Assembly (NCBI RefSeq): GCF_041886205.1
Contig: NZ_CP169029.1
Source: Escherichia coli
GTDB taxonomy: Bacteria; Pseudomonadota; Gammaproteobacteria; Enterobacterales; Enterobacteriaceae
Reading direction: 5' to 3' (one strand)
DNA: 64,000 bases
The position numbers were made by a program, and so were the translations under genes. Below the pieces are notes generated by a model. That model did no database searches. It was not told the origin of the DNA and saw only the letters and a program-made list of their open reading frames with translations. Shown one piece after another: positions 6,676 through 47,088 of this stretch. Numbering within the stretch: position 1 is the first letter of the stretch; each line of letters starts with the position of its first letter.

Positions 6676-6841
6676 TGTTTAATCCTTTTGGTTTAAACCA
6701 GATGAAGCATCTTACGCTTACGCCAAAAAAGAAAGCAATTAACGGCGTATGACTTTGCAGATAATTGTGACAAAGCTCTCTATTGACGTAATCCCAGACT
6801 TATAAGGGAGATACTCGCATTGGTGTGCGCTCACGACAGGT

Positions 6842-6874
6842 AAAAAAAAACCTGCCAGCGATGGCAGGTTTTTT
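6842..6874 (-). terminator. rho-independent terminator downstream of typA (hairpin CCTGCCAGCGATGGCAGG flanked by A/T runs)
   Basis: perfect inverted repeat 6851..6868 followed by a U-run on the minus-strand transcript. Confidence 0.6.
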
Positions 6875-6891
6875 ATAACTAAAAAACGAAA

Positions 6892-8715
6892 TTAATCGTC
6901 TTTCGGTGCGCGGTTGGCGCGACGACGATCGTTTTCAGTCAGGTGACGTTTACGAATACGGATAGAGGTCGGAGTCACTTCTACCAGTTCGTCATCATCG
7001 ATGAACTCCAGAGCTTGTTCCAGAGTCATGCGGATAGGCGGAACCAGAACAACGGCTTCGTCAGTACCGGAAGCACGCATGTTGGTCAGTTTCTTACCAG
7101 TCAGGCAGTTTACCGTCAGGTCGTTAGAGCGGCTGTGAATACCGATAATCTGACCTTCGTAAACTTCTGCACCGTGACCGAGGAACAGCTTACCGCGATC
7201 CTGCAGACCGAACAGCGCGAACGCGACCGCTTTACCCTGACCGTTAGAGATCAGTACGCCGTTCTGACGCTGACCCACTTCACCCGGACGTACGTCGTCG
7301 TAGTGGCTGAAGGTGGAGTACAGCAGACCAGTACCGGAAGTCATGGTCATGAACTCAGAACGGAAGCCAATCAGACCACGGCTTGGGATCACGTAGTCGA
7401 GACGTACGCGGCCTTTACCGTCTGGATTCATGTTTTTCAGGTCGCCTTTACGTTCGCCCAGCGCCTGCATTACAGAACCCTGATGCTGTTCTTCAACGTC
7501 CAGAGTCACGTTTTCATACGGCTCTTGTTTACGACCGTCGATTTCACGGAAGATAACTTTCGGACGGGATACCGCCAGTTCGAAACCTTCACGACGCATG
7601 TTTTCGATCAGAACAGACAGGTGTAGTTCGCCACGACCAGAAACGCGGAACGCATCAGCGTCTTCGGTTTCTTCTACGCGCAGCGCAACGTTGTGTACCA
7701 GTTCTTTGTTCAGACGATCCAGGATCTGACGAGACGTTACGAACTTACCTTCTTTACCGCAGAACGGCGAGGTGTTAACGCAGAAGAACATAGAAACGGT
7801 CGGCTCATCAACGGAGAGTGCCGGCAGCGCTTCAACGTTTTGCGTGTCGCAAACGGTGTCAGAAATGTTCAGTTCGCCCAGGCCCGTGATCGCCACGATA
7901 TCGCCAGCTTCCGCCAGATCGGTTTCGATACGTTCCAGACCGAGGTGGCCCAGCACTTTACCGACTTTCGCGTTACGGGTTTTGCCTTCGCTATCGATGA
8001 TAGTGACCTGCTGGTTCGGCTTCACTTTACCGCGCTTGATGCGGCCAATGCCGATAACGCCAACATAGCTGTTGTAATCGAGCTGAGAAATCTGCATCTG
8101 GAACGGACCGTCAAGGTCAACGTCCGGCGCAGGAACGTGATCAACAATCGCCTGATACAGCGGGGTCATGTCTTCCGCCATATCTTCGTGGTCCAGACCC
8201 GCGATACCGTTCAGCGCAGAAGCGTAAACGATCGGGAAGTCCAGCTGCTCGTCGGTCGCGTCGAGGTTAACGAACAGATCGAATACCTGATCCACAACCC
8301 AATCAGGACGCGCGCCAGGGCGGTCAACTTTGTTGATAACAACAATCGGCTTCAGGCCGTAAGCAAACGCTTTTTTGGTTACGAAGCGCGTTTGCGGCAT
8401 CGGGCCGTCAAATGCGTCAACCACCAGCAGCACTGAGTCTACCATGGACATTACACGTTCAACTTCACCACCGAAGTCGGCGTGCCCCGGGGTATCAACG
8501 ATGTTGATACGGTAATCATTCCATTTGATAGCGGTGTTTTTCGCGAGGATGGTAATCCCACGCTCTTTCTCCAAATCGTTGGAGTCCATCACGCGCTCTT
8601 GGGTTTCGGCACGAGAGTCGAACGTACCGGATTGTTGGAGCAGCTTGTCTACCAGGGTGGTTTTACCATGGTCTACGTGCGCGATGATGGCGATATTACG
8701 CAATTTTTCGATCAC
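6892..8715 (-). CDS. typA: ribosome-associated translational GTPase BipA/TypA
   Basis: 607-aa ORF with GTPase motifs ([18 protein letters not shown]); divergent from glnA. Confidence 0.95.
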
Positions 8716-8866
8716 AACTTTGCCTCAGGCATTAGAAATAGCGCGTTATTGTACACGGATTAATCGCACTACAAAACAGGATCACAAACATCCTCCGCAA
8801 ACAAGTATTGCAGAGTCCCTTTGTGATCGCTTTCACGGAGCATAAAAAGGGTTATCCAAAGGTCAT

Positions 8867-8947
8867 TGCACCAATATGGTGCTTAATGTTTCCATTGAAG
8901 CACTATATTGGTGCAACATTCACATCATGGTGCAGCCCTTTTGCACG
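8867..8947 (+). promoter_or_regulatory. NtrC (GlnG) enhancer sites upstream of glnA (TGCACCAatatGGTGCt, GCACtatatTGGTGCA and a third partial site)
   Basis: matches to the TGCACCA-N3-TGGTGCA dyad at about 8867..8883, 8900..8916 and 8929..8947. Confidence 0.75.
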
Positions 8948-13378: not shown

Positions 13379-13480
<102 letters not shown>

Positions 13481-13562: not shown

Positions 13563-14936
13563 TTAAATCACCCGAGAGAACTGCTGCATCCGCGCTTTCT
13601 GGCGCAGATAGGTATCAAAGCACATGCAAATGTTGCGGATCAGCAAGCGACCTTTCGCCGTCACCTGAATCCCCTTCTCATCGACATCCACCAGCCCATC
13701 TTTTGCTAACGGGGCGAGCAGCTTGAGATCTTCCGCAAAGTAATCAGCGAAGTGCAAATCCCACTGTTTCTCAATAGGGGCGTAATCCAGACGGAAGTTG
13801 CAGATGAGCGACTTAATCACATCGCGGCGAATACAGTCATCACGCGTTAGCGCAATACCACGCCACAGCGCATTGCCTTGTTCATCCACTTGCTGATAGT
13901 ACTGCTTCAACTCTTTCTGGTTCTGCGCGTAGCAGTCGCCAATCATGCTGATGGCGGAAACGCCCATCCCCAGCAGATCGGTATCGCCCTGAGTGGTGTA
14001 GCCCTGGAAGTTACGATGCAGCACGCCTTCACGCTGGGCCACCGCCAGCTCGTCATCCGGACGGGCAAAGTGATCCATACCGATAAACTGATAGCCCGAT
14101 TGCGTCAGGAAGGCGATGGTTTCCTGCAGGATATCGAGTTTTTGCTGCGGACTCGGCAGGTCAGCATCTTTGATTTTGCGCTGAGCAGCAAAAATGGTCG
14201 GCAGATGCGCGTAGTTAAAGACACTCAGACGATCGGGGTTCAGCTCCGCCACACGTTTCAGGGTAAAGGCGAAACTCTCCGGCGTCTGTTTCGGCAGGCC
14301 GTAAATCAGGTCGATGTTGGTGGAGGTAAAACCAATCTCACGCGCATGGTTAAGCAGTGCAAAGATGAACTCTTCATCCTGCTCGCGGTTAACCAGACGT
14401 TGCACTTCTTTGTTGAAGTCCTGCACGCCCATGCTCAGGCGATTAAAGCCTTCGGCGCGTAAATGATCGAGTACATCCAGTTCGATTTCCCGCGGATCGA
14501 CTTCGATCGAAATCTCCGCATCGGCATTGAACTGGAAGTTTTCGCGCAGCAGCTTCATCAGGCGGCTGATTTGCGCTTTATTCAGATACGTCGGCGTTCC
14601 GCCGCCCCAGTGCAATTGGCTGACGTGACGCCCGGCGAACAGCGGTGCACGATGGACGATTTCTTGCTCCAGCGCGTCCAGATACTGATCGGCCTTGTGC
14701 TGCTGGCGAGTAACAATCTTATTGCAACCGCAGAAGTAACAAAGCTTATGGCAGAACGGGATATGTACGTAGAGAGATAATGGACGCTCAGGATAGCGCG
14801 CCACGGCTTGTAAAAACGCCTGTTCGCCGAAGTCTTCTGAAAACTCCAGCGCGGTCGGGTACGAGGTGTATCGTGGCCCGGAATAGTTATATTTCTGGAT
14901 CAGGGCCAGATCCCAGTCGATTTGCTGTACAGACAT
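13563..14936 (-). CDS. hemN: oxygen-independent coproporphyrinogen III oxidase (radical SAM)
   Basis: 457-aa product from MSVQQIDWD; CxxxCxxC motif (HIPFCHKLCYFCGC). Confidence 0.95.
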   Translation of the reverse strand: MSVQQIDWDLALIQKYNYSGPRYTSYPTALEFSEDFGEQAFLQAVARYPERPLSLYVHIPFCHKLCYFCGCNKIVTRQQHKADQYLDALEQEIVHRAPLFAGRHVSQLHWGGGTPTYLNKAQISRLMKLLRENFQFNADAEISIEVDPREIELDVLDHLRAEGFNRLSMGVQDFNKEVQRLVNREQDEEFIFALLNHAREIGFTSTNIDLIYGLPKQTPESFAFTLKRVAELNPDRLSVFNYAHLPTIFAAQRKIKDADLPSPQQKLDILQETIAFLTQSGYQFIGMDHFARPDDELAVAQREGVLHRNFQGYTTQGDTDLLGMGVSAISMIGDCYAQNQKELKQYYQQVDEQGNALWRGIALTRDDCIRRDVIKSLICNFRLDYAPIEKQWDLHFADYFAEDLKLLAPLAKDGLVDVDEKGIQVTAKGRLLIRNICMCFDTYLRQKARMQQFSRVI

Positions 14937-15124
14937 GCTCACTCCTTCCGATGGCGTCTCTGGCGGCTACGGCGTACCGGCGGATGCCCGTTTCGGGTCA
15001 TCAGCCGGTTGCGCAGCCACTTTTGTCGCCGCGACAACCGCTGTAGTTTAACGAATAACCACACCAGATAACATATAACCGGAAGGGTTATCAGCAGAAC
15101 GGGAAGGCCCACGGCGGCAATCCG

Positions 15125-15634
15125 TTAGTTGCCCCGCAGCAGACGCATCATGTCTTCTTGCTTCTCGTCTTCTTCCTCTTCTTCGTCATCGTCATAAGAG
15201 AGGCCGAGTTTCTGCATCAACTCATCAATACGATCCAGTTTAGCATCCACCCAGGATTGCTCTTCGGCACTCAGGGTTTCGCCTGCTTCCAGACGTTCCA
15301 GCAGCGCATCCAGACGCTCATCCGTTTCCAGTAATTCCAACTCCGCCTGCGGTGAAAGCATAGGTTTCTCACTCTTCGGTTTGTGCTGTTTGGTGACTTT
15401 TTCAGTCACGCCCAATGGAATAGGGGTTTTACTGCCAATACGTGGATCTTTTGGTGCGTTCTGGCCTTTGCTGCCTGACGTGGTGTTTCCGCCCGCTGCG
15501 CGGCTGCCCGGCGCATGACCACGACGTTTTTTCTGACGCTTGCGATCACGAGCTTCCTGATCCAGCTCCTCGCGTGTTTTTCGACGCGCTTTTGCATGAC
15601 CTTTGCTGCGTGAGTTTGAAGATGATGGTTTCAT
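15125..15634 (-). CDS. yihI: Der GTPase-activating protein YihI
   Basis: 169-aa product from [13 protein letters not shown]; strongly basic N-terminus and acidic C-terminus. Confidence 0.85.
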
Positions 15635-15702
15635 AATGGTTCGTCTTTTAGCCGTTTTATTCAGTATAGATTTGCGGCGGAATCTAACAGAAAGCAAGCA
15701 AA

Positions 15703-15945
15703 GAAAAAAGGCGACAGATTACTCTGTCGCCTTTTTTCCTGACTCATAACCCTTAACGGGTCTTACAATCCTTGCAGGCCGCCAACACACCCTGTTTTTC
15801 CTTTAGCCGGAACAATCCGTGTTGATTCCATTTCCGTTTAATTACGTCTCCGGACGTTTGTCTTCCTGACAATCCTCTGTCTTCGCCTCCTGGCGCTCCT
15901 GACCCTCATCCTGAGTCATTGTTCCTGTTAGCGTCCTCGCTCTAT
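15703..15945 (-). ncRNA. csrC: CsrC small RNA (CsrA-sequestering)
   Basis: reverse complement matches CsrC from ATAGAGCGAGGACGC.. to the terminator GGCGACAGAGTAATCTGTCGCCTTTTTT; multiple GGA motifs; between yihI and engB. Confidence 0.85.
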
Positions 15946-16215
15946 GGGTGCTACTTTACGCCTTTGCTTTAAACAAACAATCAACCGCCATCAGTATTTG
16001 CACATTTTCAGAGTTTTATATAAAAGCAATTCACTGATTTATATAGCTTATTTGACATGCATCGCAGAATTTTCTCTGCTATTTCGCATAAAGACTATCG
16101 GCAATGTCTCACAAAGCGTATGGCTTTTACTTACAACGCTCACGCCGAAAAATCCGCCTTTTATTATGGTTCAGGTATAATCGCCACAAAGCTTTGACTG
16201 ACGGAGACGACCGCT

Positions 16216-16848
16216 TTGACTAATTTGAATTATCAACAGACGCATTTTGTGATGAGTGCGCCTGATATTCGCCACCTACCTTCCGATACCGGAATTGAAG
16301 TGGCTTTTGCAGGCCGTTCCAACGCAGGTAAATCCAGTGCGCTGAACACGCTGACTAACCAGAAAAGCCTGGCTCGTACCTCAAAAACCCCAGGGCGCAC
16401 CCAGCTTATCAACCTGTTTGAAGTGGCTGACGGCAAGCGTCTGGTTGACTTGCCTGGGTACGGTTATGCGGAAGTCCCGGAAGAGATGAAGCGCAAATGG
16501 CAGCGTGCGCTCGGCGAATACCTCGAAAAACGTCAGAGCCTGCAAGGTCTGGTGGTGCTAATGGATATTCGCCATCCGCTGAAAGATTTGGATCAGCAGA
16601 TGATTGAGTGGGCGGTAGACAGCAATATCGCCGTTCTGGTGCTGCTGACCAAAGCGGACAAACTGGCAAGCGGCGCACGTAAAGCGCAATTGAATATGGT
16701 GCGTGAAGCTGTACTGGCGTTTAACGGTGATGTGCAGGTTGAAACGTTTTCTTCGTTGAAGAAACAAGGCGTGGACAAGCTGCGGCAGAAACTGGATACC
16801 TGGTTTAGCGAGATGCAGCCTGTAGAAGAAACGCAGGACGGCGAATAA
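16216..16848 (+). CDS. engB: ribosome-biogenesis GTPase EngB/YihA
   Basis: 210-aa ORF with apparent TTG start; G1 motif GRSNAGKSS. Confidence 0.9.
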
Positions 16849-16869
16849 TTTTCTTGCCTTAATGCTTGT

Positions 16870-16950
16870 GCCGGATGTGGCGTATCCGGCCCGTAAATTC
16901 AATAGATTACAATTCTACCGTTGGCCTGATAAACATAGCGCATCAGGCAT
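16870..16950. repeat. REP-like palindromic units downstream of engB
   Basis: GCCGGATGTGGCGTATCCGGC and GCCTGATAAACATAGCGCATCAGGC imperfect palindromes. Confidence 0.5.
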
Positions 16951-16973
16951 TACGGATCTTTTCTTTCGCCCAA

Positions 16974-17082
16974 TAAAAAACGCCCCAGTCATTACTGACT
17001 GGGGCGGCTAAAATATTCAGCCAAATCCGATTACGTGAAGTAAAAGGTCTGAAAGATAGAACATCTTACCTCTGTACCCTAC
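16974..17082 (-). ncRNA. spf: Spot 42 small RNA
   Basis: reverse complement matches Spot 42 (GTAGGGTACAGAGGTAAGATGTTC...) through the terminator CCGCCCCAGTCAGTAATGACTGGGGCGTTTTTTA. Confidence 0.9.
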
Positions 17083-17229
17083 GCGACTAACTTTACTCTT
17101 TTTTGTTCAGTTCAGAAAGCACTTTTTGTAATTTTTTTTCAGTTGTTGCATAGGAATTTCTAATAGCCATCACAAAACGTGACAGCTTATGTTGCTTACT
17201 TACGAAAAAAGGGCATGTTCAGGCGAATC

Positions 17230-20016
17230 TTAGTGCGCCTGATCCCAGTTTTCGCCACTCCCCACTTCCACCAGCAACGGCACATCCAGACGGGTACAGT
17301 TTTCCATCAGTTGATGAATCTGCTTCGCGACGGCATCAACATCATCTTTATGAACTTCAAATACCAGTTCATCGTGTACCTGCATGATCATACGTACACG
17401 CGGTTGCTCAGCCTGTAACCACGCATCAACGGCAATCATCGCCCGTTTGATAATGTCGGCGGCGGTTCCCTGCATTGGCGCGTTAATGGCTGCACGTTCA
17501 GCCGCTGCACGACGAGCACCATTGCTGGATTTGATATCCGGCAGATACAGACGGCGTCCGTCCAGCGTTTCAACGTAGCCCTGCTCTTTCGCCTGAGCAC
17601 GGGTGCGTTCCATATACTCCAGCACGCCAGGGTAGCGTTCGAAGTAAAGGTCCATGTACTTCTGCGCTTCTTTACGTGGAATGTTCAATTGCCGCGCCAG
17701 ACCGAAAGCACTCATGCCATAAATCAGACCAAAGTTGATCGCTTTCGCGCTACGGCGTTGCTCGCTGGTGACGGTTTCCAGTGGCAAACCAAACACTTCT
17801 GCCGCCGTTGCCCGGTGGATATCTTTTCCTTCCGCGAATGCGGTCAGCAAGCCTTTGTCACGCGAAAGATGCGCCATAATGCGCAGTTCAATCTGCGAGT
17901 AGTCCGCTGAGACAATCACATAATCCTCTGGCGCAATAAACGCCTGGCGGATACGACGACCTTCTTCGTTACGCACCGGAATGTTTTGCAGGTTAGGATC
18001 GGTTGACGATAAACGTCCCGTTGCAGTTACTGCCTGGTGATAAGAGGTATGCACACGCCCGGTTTTCGGGTTGATCATCAGCGGCAGCTTGTCGGTGTAG
18101 GTCGATTTCAGCTTCGCCAGACCACGATACTCCAGAATCACTTTTGGCAACGGATAGTCCAGCGCCAGTTCTTCCAGTACCTCTTCCGACGTTGACGGCG
18201 CGCCACCCGGCGTTTTCTTCAGCGGTTTAATGCCCTGTTTTTCAAAGAGAATGGTTTGTAACTGCTTGGTGGAAGAAAGGTTAAATTCCTCACCTGCAAT
18301 TTCATGCGCTTTCTTTTCCAGCTCAGCCAGACGAAGGGTGAGCTCTTCAGAATGATTGTGCAGCACTTTCGGATCGATCTTCACACCGTTACGTTCAATG
18401 CGTGAAAGCACCGGCACCAGCGGCATTTCGATATTCTCGAAGACGTTCAACGGCCCTTTGTGTTTTTGCAGATCCGGCCACATTTTCAGATGCAACTGCA
18501 AGGTGACATCTGCATCTTCGGCGGCGTAACGTCCGGCTTCTTCGAGGGCAATCTGGTTAAAGGTCAGTTGATTTTTGCCTTTACCAGCAATCTCTTCAAA
18601 AGTGATGGTTTTGTGCTTCAACCAACGTTCCGCGAGGCTGTCCATATCGTGACGCCCGGCAACGCTATTGAGAATGTAGGACTCCAGCATGGTATCAAAC
18701 GCAATCCCACGCAGTTCAATGCCGTAGTTCGCCAGAATACCGCGATCGTATTTCAGGTTTTGCCCGACCTTCAGCGCCTTTTCATCTTCCAGCAGCGGTT
18801 TTAGCAACTCGAGTGCACGCTCGCGAGAGATTTGATCGGGCGCATCAAGATAATCATGAGCAACCGGAATATATGCCGCTACGCCTGGCTCGATAGCAAA
18901 AGAAAGCCCGACCAGGTTAGCAGAGATGTTATCAAGGCTGTCGGTTTCGGTATCAAATGCAAATACCGGCGCTTTTTCCAGCTTCGCAATCCACGCTTTC
19001 AGTGTTTCTTCATCAAGGATGGTGACGTAGTTGTCATAAGAAATCACCGTTGCCGTCACTTCTGGCGCTTCGTCTGCAACACTGGTTTCCTGCGGTCTGG
19101 CTGCGGGTTTCGCCCCTTTAGCCTGTAACCATTTGCCCGCTTCGACATCAGCAGTCCAGCGTTTGAACTCATACTTTTTGAACAGCCCCAACAACTCTTC
19201 CGCCGCCGGTTGCTGCACTTCCAGTTGTTCACAGGTCAGCTCCAGTTCAACGTCGGTTTTAATCGTCGCCAGCTGGTATGAGAGATAAGCAACTTCTTTG
19301 TTTTGCTCGAGCTTCGCTGCCATTGTTTTCGCGCCACGGAAGCTCAACCCAGCAATTTTTTCTGGCTCGGCATACAGCGTATCCAGTCCGCCAAGACCTT
19401 GCAGCAATGCCTGCGCGGTTTTTTCACCGACGCCCGGTACGCCAGGGATGTTATCGGAGGAGTCACCCATCAGCGCCAGGAAATCGATGATCAGTTCTGG
19501 CGGCACGCCGTACTTATTCACCACCTCTTCCGGTCCAAGGATGGTATTCGTCATGGTATTGATAAGCGTAATATTTGGCGTCACCAGCTGCGCCATATCT
19601 TTATCGCCAGTGCTGATCAGCACCGGATGCCCGGCTTTTTCGGCTTCGCGCGCCAGAGTACCGATAACGTCGTCCGCTTCTACGCTAGAAACCGCCAGCA
19701 GCGGCAGCCCCATCGCTTTAACCATCGCGTGCAAAGGTTCGATTTGTGCTCGCAGATCGTCCGGCATTGGCGGGCGATGTGATTTGTAATGTTCAAACAG
19801 TTCATCACGAAAGGTTTTTCCCTTGGCGTCAAAGACCACCGCTGCATGCGTCGGTTTATATTGCATGATCAGACTGCGCAGCATGTTGAGGACACCATAC
19901 ATCGCACCGGTCGGCTCGCCTGCGCTGTTAGTCAGCGGAGGAAACGCGTGATATGCGCGATAAAGATAAGATGAACCATCTACAAGGATAAGTGGATTTT
20001 GGGGGATCTGAACCAT
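17230..20016 (-). CDS. polA: DNA polymerase I
   Basis: 928-aa ORF, recognised PolA sequence. Confidence 0.97.
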
Positions 20017-26177: not shown

Positions 26178-26297
26178 ATGCCTGGCAGTTCCCTACTCTC
26201 GCATGGGGAGACCCCACACTACCATCGGCGCTACGGCGTTTCACTTCTGAGTTCGGCATGGGGTCAGGTGGGACCACCGCGCTACGGCCGCCAGGCA
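26178..26297 (-). rRNA. rrfA: 5S ribosomal RNA
   Basis: 120-nt match to E. coli 5S rRNA (reverse complement ATGCCTGGCAGTTCCCTACTCTCGCATGGGG...). Confidence 0.97.
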
Positions 26298-26389
26298 AAT
26301 TCTTTTTTATCAGACCGCTTCTGCGTTCTGATTTAATCTGTATCAGGCTGAAAATCTTCTCTCATCCGCCAAAACACCTTCGGCGTTGT

Positions 26390-29292
<2,903 letters not shown>

Positions 29293-29475
29293 TCACAACC
29301 CGAAGATGTTTCTTTCGATTCATCATCGTGTTGCGAAAATTTGAGAGACTCACGAACAACTTTCGTTGTTCAGTGTTTCAATTTTCAGCTTGATCCAGAT
29401 TTTTAAAGAGCAAAACTTCGCAGTGAACCTTTGCAGGTACACTCTGAAGTATTTTTTATTTAATCACTACAGAGA

Positions 29476-29551
29476 TGGTGGAGCTATGCGGGATCGAACC
29501 GCAGACCTCCTGCGTGCAAAGCAGGCGCTCTCCCAGCTGAGCTATAGCCCC
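29476..29551 (-). tRNA. alaT: tRNA-Ala (UGC)
   Basis: 76-nt match to GGGGCTATAGCTCAGCTGGGAGAGCGCCTGCTTTGCACGCAGGAGGTCTGCGGTTCGATCCCGCATAGCTCCACCA. Confidence 0.97.
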
Positions 29552-29593
29552 ATAACATGTAGTTAAAACCTCTTCAAATTTGCGGTGCAAATT

Positions 29594-29670
<77 letters not shown>

Positions 29671-29738
29671 GTAGAGGTTTTACTGCTCATTTTCATCAGA
29701 CAATCTGTGTGAGCACTGCAAAGTACGCTTCTTTAAGG

Positions 29739-31280
<1,542 letters not shown>

Positions 31281-39208: not shown

Positions 39209-39392
<184 letters not shown>

Positions 39393-44845: not shown

Positions 44846-47088
<2,243 letters not shown>

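Follow-up and report, generated by a model that had tools for sequence, protein, structure and literature searches.

The global regulator CsrA governs carbon metabolism, biofilm formation, motility and virulence, and its activity is set by the small RNAs CsrB and CsrC. The Escherichia coli DNA analysed here (a stretch of 64,000 nucleotides from contig NZ_CP169029.1, hereafter the window) has a blank in its list of open reading frames between yihI and yihA (engB), where a sequence-only reading had recognised a CsrC gene ending in a possibly bidirectional terminator. What does this interval encode, how might it be controlled, and does it give rise to anything other than a CsrA-titrating RNA, such as a stop signal for the opposite strand, a leader of yihI or a small peptide?

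Identity and position of csrC

A scan of the whole 64-kb window with Rfam 15, the check suggested with the earlier reading, matched the minus strand at 15692-15945 to RF00084 (CsrC) over the full model (positions 1-255 of 255); the score was 278.7 bits, the gathering score being 61 (E 6.4e-88), and clan competition at the locus was resolved for CsrC. Moreover, window positions 15700-15945 are identical in 246/246 nucleotides to csrC of K-12 MG1655 (b4457; NC_000913.3 4051036-4051281), and the whole yihA-yihI intergenic region equals the K-12 sequence without a difference. The minus strand of this interval reads ATAGAGCGAGGACGC...GGCGACAGAGTAATCTGTCGCCTTTTTTCTTT. The full-length match and the identity bear out the earlier recognition of CsrC on this strand, and it is virtually certain that 15700-15945 is the csrC gene, whose product is the known CsrA-decoy sRNA. 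The gene is an already known one and, because it is identical to that of K-12, this copy adds nothing new. The 651-nt csrC region was found in 5425/5426 complete E. coli genomes, with an identity of at least 95% in all but one.

The boundaries depend slightly on their source: the K-12 annotation places the 3' end at 15700 and the Rfam match at 15692, and the interval first proposed (15703-15945) was correct to within 3 nt of the annotated end. The locus is the canonical one, between yihA/engB and yihI and near spf, with the K-12 gene order reversed in orientation (Table 1). The RNA had been described as antisense to the open reading frame track between yihI and engB; the position between the two genes holds but the antisense relation does not, since csrC is intergenic with nothing encoded opposite, co-directional with yihI and divergent from engB. 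The track is indeed blank, with no open reading frame of at least 40 aa inside 15750-15943 on either strand.

Table 1. Features of the csrC locus and other elements, in window coordinates
Feature	Position	Strand	Details and basis
csrC gene (CsrC sRNA, 246 nt per K-12 annotation)	15700..15945	-	Transcription start 15945; Rfam and K-12 identity
Intrinsic terminator	15704..15737	-	A6 15737..15732, stem-loop 15731..15710, U6 15709..15704
CsrC nucleotide 202, published in vivo sense 3' end just 5' of the terminator	15744	-	Term-seq, K-12 4051237 (+)
Array of 14 GGA (candidate CsrA-binding sites)	15739..15936	-	Sequence and Rfam consensus structure; first G at 15936, 15925, 15911, 15899, 15890, 15875, 15866, 15851, 15835, 15829, 15818, 15801, 15771, 15739
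25-aa open reading frame MTQDEGQERQEAKTEDCQEDKRPET	15842-15919	-	AUG 15919; overlaps other small open reading frames
Core promoter (predicted)	15953..15980	-	-10 TAAAGT 15958..15953, 16-nt spacer, weak -35-like TTGTTT 15980..15975; conservation
PhoP activator site reported for csrC (-41..-24)	15969..15986	-	GGTTGATTGTTTGTTTAA; mapped from K-12 4,050,995-4,051,012
UvrY-P binding inverted repeat (-168..-151)	16096..16113	-	TGTGAGACATTGCCGATA; exact published sequence
TGTAAG half-site, 16 bp upstream of the UvrY repeat	16130..16135	-	Published; conserved across genera
hemN	13563-14942	-	Neighbour as in K-12
yihI	15125..15634	-	Downstream co-directional neighbour; open reading frame list and RefSeq annotation
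yihA/engB	16216..16848	+	Upstream divergent neighbour; open reading frame list and RefSeq annotation
spf/Spot 42 sRNA	16974-17092	-	Rfam 122.8 bits; just beyond yihA
polA	17230-20016	-	Neighbour as in K-12
16S	29739-31280	-	
Two tRNAs	29479-29670	-	rRNA operon
StyR-44 match	29300-29408	-	rRNA operon
23S	26390-29292	-	
5S	26180-26295	-	
Erse	46483-46734	-	Rfam, 313 bits
ES222	8797-8904	-	Rfam, above gathering score
STnc370	6839-6907	-	Rfam, borderline (54.9 vs gathering score 54)
naRNA4/REP-type element	13400-13477	-	Rfam; between glnG and hemN
naRNA4/REP-type element	39261-39338	-	Rfam, above gathering score

Among the other elements of the window, a complete rRNA operon occupies 26180-31280 on the minus strand, and the further Rfam matches are listed with it in Table 1.

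CsrC in related genomes

Relatives were gathered by an exact 18-mer scan of contigs representing one genome per species and were then confirmed with Rfam. The 18-mer scan also gave chance matches in GC-rich Actinobacteria and other unrelated genomes; at one such match, in a Vibrio cholerae locus, the Rfam scan found no CsrC. Alignments contain only loci with a CsrC match and comprise 12 sequences, namely the window and 11 other Enterobacteriaceae: Escherichia whittamii, Salmonella arizonae, two Citrobacter, Superficieibacter, Enterobacter cloacae, Silvania, Pluralibacter, Pseudescherichia, Enterobacter sp. Bisph1 and Kosakonia. Each of these 11 loci carries a full-length CsrC (140-298 bits, Rfam). 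Nine of the eleven have Spot 42 some 1 kb away from CsrC, and in the remaining two that place falls outside the fetched stretch.

GGA motifs and predicted fold

The csrC RNA is purine-rich (A80 G77 T47 C42), and in the 246-nt interval GGA occurs 14 times on the minus strand, as against twice on the plus strand. Stretches of 245 nt elsewhere in the 64-kb window carry 3.3 on average (sd 1.9), and csrC is the maximum over both strands, in agreement with the earlier description of a GGA-rich minus strand. Dinucleotide shuffles of csrC are a harder test than the window average because the RNA itself is purine-rich: they contain 8.9 GGA on average (sd 2.0) and 0.8% of them reach 14, so that the motif count alone is only moderately significant. 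It is the covariance-model match, and not the GGA count, that is decisive for the identity of the RNA. The excess over composition-matched shuffles, only about 2.6 sd, would suit a chance purine-rich intergenic stretch beside a terminator, or some other member of the CsrB/RsmB clan. Both are refuted by the Rfam match (E 6e-88 on the full CsrC model, with clan competition favouring CsrC), by identity to the annotated gene and by synteny kept across genera, and we regard their probability as negligible.

In the Rfam consensus structure, six of the motifs fall in hairpin loops and five in single-stranded linkers, which leaves three at least partly paired; a count of GGA in predicted loops had been proposed as a check on the CsrC call, and 11/14 are thus unpaired in the consensus. 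This predicted layout is as expected for a CsrA decoy. CsrC homologs contain 13-15 GGA each, and at 13/14 of the E. coli positions a GGA is found no more than 4 columns away in 10/12 sequences or more. Across the 12-sequence alignment, the Rfam pairs are maintained in 88.4% of cells, compared with 39-48% when partners are slid, and six pairs are altered on both sides in a compensatory manner; this covariation gives limited support because most pairs are invariant among such close relatives. The single-sequence fold of csrC is unusually stable (z = -5.3). Applied to a MAFFT alignment, RNAalifold found the Rfam structure only in part and added a doubtful 5'-3' closing helix, and the Rfam consensus mapped onto the alignment was therefore used instead.

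Promoter and upstream control

A sigma-70 consensus scan of 15000-17300 found no promoter, and the csrC promoter was therefore placed from the annotated start and from conservation across genera. Across the 12 sequences, TTGT never varies and TAAAGT varies at only one of its six positions. A promoter so poor in consensus, as predicted here, would be consistent with one that depends on activators.

Candidate sites for two such activators lie upstream. A PhoP site has been reported at csrC, at K-12 4,050,995-4,051,012 (PMC11230228, Table 3). For UvrY, Zere et al. 2015 (PMC4682653) described at E. coli csrC the repeat TGTGAGACATTGCCGATA with a TGTAAG half-site 16 bp upstream. Both are present in the window in exact sequence and spacing, binding itself being predicted, and the TGTGAGA block of the repeat is conserved across genera. 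A search of the whole window for TGTRAGN6CTYACA with 3 mismatches gave 37 matches against 56.5 expected by chance; as the consensus search had no discriminating power, the UvrY site was accepted only after the published sequence and spacing had been matched.

The terminator and the opposite strand

The 3' end of csrC is GGCGACAGAGUAAUCUGUCGCC followed by U6. On the minus strand the stem-loop reads GGCGACAGAGTAATCTGTCGCC, after which come T6 and CTTT. The stem is GC-rich and 9 bp long with a 4-nt loop, and according to the fold and the terminator scan the A and U runs can lengthen it to 18 pairs; the strong intrinsic terminator with its U6, and the A-run on one side and T-run on the other, had been described accurately from the letters. 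A-run, stem and T-run are kept in 12/12 sequences (Kosakonia has 5 As, not 6), and variation in the terminator is limited to one stem pair and one loop-closing pair. Its loop is GUAA in Escherichia, C. amalonaticus and Superficieibacter, whereas the other genera have a UUAC-like form.

Could the same hairpin be truly bidirectional and also stop plus-strand transcription arriving from the yihI/hemN side? Its plus-strand copy, AAAAAA-GGCGACAGATTACTCTGTCGCC-TTTTTT, has the same 9-bp stem followed by T6, with nearly equal stability of the core hairpin (-15.0 kcal/mol vs -15.9 kcal/mol in sense), and reaches 42.9 bits against the terminator segment of the CsrC model. Given the symmetry of the flanks, the reverse-strand A5-stem-loop-T6 of the E. 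coli element is the sense terminator stretch of Citrobacter werkmanii CsrC, and an A-run that is dispensable for sense termination is kept in 12/12 sequences, which likewise speaks for termination in both directions.

The A-run, however, is explicable by the extension of the stem to 18 pairs, the distal tail on the plus strand is less T-rich (TTTTTTCCTGAC vs TTTTTTCTTTGC on the sense strand), and the genomic setting argues against a role in the reverse direction. csrC and yihI are co-directional, that is, the hairpin does not lie between convergent units, where the bidirectional terminators of E. coli have been described (bioRxiv 10.1101/2022.10.23.513370), and to its left no plus-strand gene or consensus promoter occurs within 15000-15700. 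Transcripts reading in from glnALG have ended some 2.1 kb before the hairpin, at K-12 4053422 (window ~13559; PMC7815308). No opposite-strand 3' end at K-12 40512xx-40513xx appears in the Term-seq data tabulated by Adams et al. 2021 (PMC7815308), possibly because no transcription arrives from that side, and our literature search found no paper treating the csrC terminator as bidirectional. Of the earlier suggestion that the element could act bidirectionally, the sequence symmetry stands, but it is matched by neither a convergent unit nor an opposite-strand Term-seq 3' end. Bidirectional termination at csrC is a structural possibility, and we consider it unlikely that the hairpin truly serves both strands.

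The spacer to yihI

The DNA that separates the csrC terminator from the yihI ATG (15635-15703, minus strand) is nearly invariant across the 12 sequences and contains, besides further invariant blocks, an invariant TATACT box at 15668..15663 (minus strand). On the strength of this box, yihI probably has its own promoter in the spacer, and the T-rich tail of the csrC terminator would then sit about 35-55 nt upstream of the transcription start of that promoter, in the position of an UP-like element.

The end of csrC is only 65 nt from the yihI ATG on the same strand, and in the classification of Adams et al. (PMC7815308) the csrC 3' end appears under 'upstream ORF -110 yihI'. This proximity would fit a region that is mainly a long 5' leader of yihI, with CsrC as an attenuation by-product and yihI driven by read-through. 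Such a leader is very unlikely given the strong terminator, with its 18-pair extended stem and U6CUUU, and the invariant TATACT box and blocks, which suggest a separate promoter for yihI; moreover, CsrC is established as an autonomous regulator (PMC7652899).

Coding potential within CsrC

Sense-strand open reading frames of 22-39 aa occur within csrC, some of them preceded by AGGA, and raise the question of whether CsrC has a dual function and is also translated into a small peptide, from the 25-aa frame of Table 1 or from frames overlapping it. Ribosome-profiling data lend this some weight: Friedman et al. 2017 (PMC5521070) reported peaks over CsrC open reading frames, two of which were scored as coding, although the peaks are ambiguous. 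In addition, the PGAP annotation of strain E2865 places a frameshifted 'hypothetical protein' pseudogene inside csrC. The alignment, on the other hand, does not behave like coding sequence. The ATG is kept in only 3/12 sequences and the position of the stop shifts; minimal changes per codon position are 22/26/24, without a third-position excess (CsrC nt 49-66 were left out of this test because the 18-mer seed forces invariance there); and the homologous segments differ in length by -1, -1, -2, -10 and -10 nt, that is, by out-of-frame indels. Comparison of the internal peptides with Pfam and NCBIfam gave no family match. The footprints could stem from the GGA motifs themselves, which resemble Shine-Dalgarno sequences and are bound by CsrA.

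These comparisons cover peptides conserved across genera, and for such a peptide the 12 sequences give no evidence of a coding signature; that CsrC doubles as a messenger of this kind is highly improbable. We assign an equally slight chance to a lineage-specific acidic peptide of 25 aa translated from AUG 15919 in Escherichia. If this were true, CsrC would be a dual-function RNA like the neighbouring Spot 42/SpfP. In K-12, Spot 42 (spf) also encodes the small protein SpfP (b4837).

In the RefSeq/PGAP annotation of E. coli E2865, the pseudogene ('hypothetical protein; frameshifted; internal stop') lies at window 15753-15919 on the minus strand (1832-1998 of the retrieved locus), and no csrC ncRNA feature is annotated there; it looks like an annotation artefact. 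Among the matches listed, a 'hypothetical protein' label lies under the csrC match in all 12 genomes. In many E. coli genomes the automated RefSeq annotation lacks csrC, and a spurious 'hypothetical protein' pseudogene may stand in its place. csrC illustrates how a textbook regulatory RNA can be recognised from raw sequence where the open reading frame track is blank.

Proposed mode of action and decay

For CsrA binding, for UvrY and PhoP control and for CsrD/RNase E decay we rely on published work on K-12, whose csrC sequence is identical. Both CsrB and CsrC draw CsrA away from mRNAs through multiple high-affinity binding sites; their synthesis is driven by BarA-UvrY, ppGpp/DksA and other inputs; and CsrD with EIIA-Glc triggers their RNase E-dependent decay, PNPase clearing the fragments (PMC7652899, PMC5027483).

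Based on these prior findings, we propose the following course of events at this locus. Starting from the weak sigma-70-type promoter, transcription of csrC would run along the minus strand between 15945 and the intrinsic terminator near position 15700. Activation would come from phosphorylated UvrY, bound some 150-190 bp upstream, and from PhoP at the -35 region. The RNA of about 245 nt would form consecutive short hairpins, with GGA exposed in loops and linkers. As a CsrA dimer occupies two GGA sites, one CsrC molecule would sequester several dimers and titrate CsrA off its mRNA targets. CsrC would be removed by CsrD-dependent RNase E cleavage, probably beginning just 5' of the terminator, and then by PNPase.

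In CsrB, the necessary RNase E cleavage occurs in an unstructured segment just 5' of the terminator (PMC5027483). The 3'-end tables of Adams et al. 2021 (PMC7815308) hold three entries for K-12 4051237 and none for the csrC terminator end itself. By analogy with the equivalent place in CsrB, we infer that this in vivo end, at CsrC nucleotide 202, is probably the cleavage site at which decay begins.

Comparison with known systems

The hairpin at the end of csrC resembles the bidirectional terminators of Ju et al. 2019 (via bioRxiv 10.1101/2022.10.23.513370) in that it reads as a stem-loop on both strands; theirs, however, lie between convergent expressed genes, whereas the genes flanking this hairpin are in tandem.

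CsrB (RF00018, clan CL00106) is, like CsrC, a multi-hairpin GGA RNA that sequesters CsrA, is activated by UvrY and decays by way of CsrD and RNase E. It differs in being longer, in having 22 GGA motifs and in its locus. According to the literature, activation of CsrB needs IHF, whereas that of csrC does not, and the UvrY repeat of csrC is less symmetric than that of CsrB (PMC4682653).

The closest known system is CsrC of E. coli K-12 itself (b4457; RF00084; Weilbacher et al. 2003, as cited in PMC7652899), which the window matches in 246/246 nt with the same terminator, the same neighbours (yihA, yihI, spf, polA and hemN) and the same UvrY repeat and half-site. The window comes from an E. coli strain other than K-12, since the surrounding 5 kb differ from K-12 at up to 45 aligned columns (hand trimming of the compared stretches makes this an upper bound), although none of the differences lies in the gene or in the yihA-yihI intergenic region.
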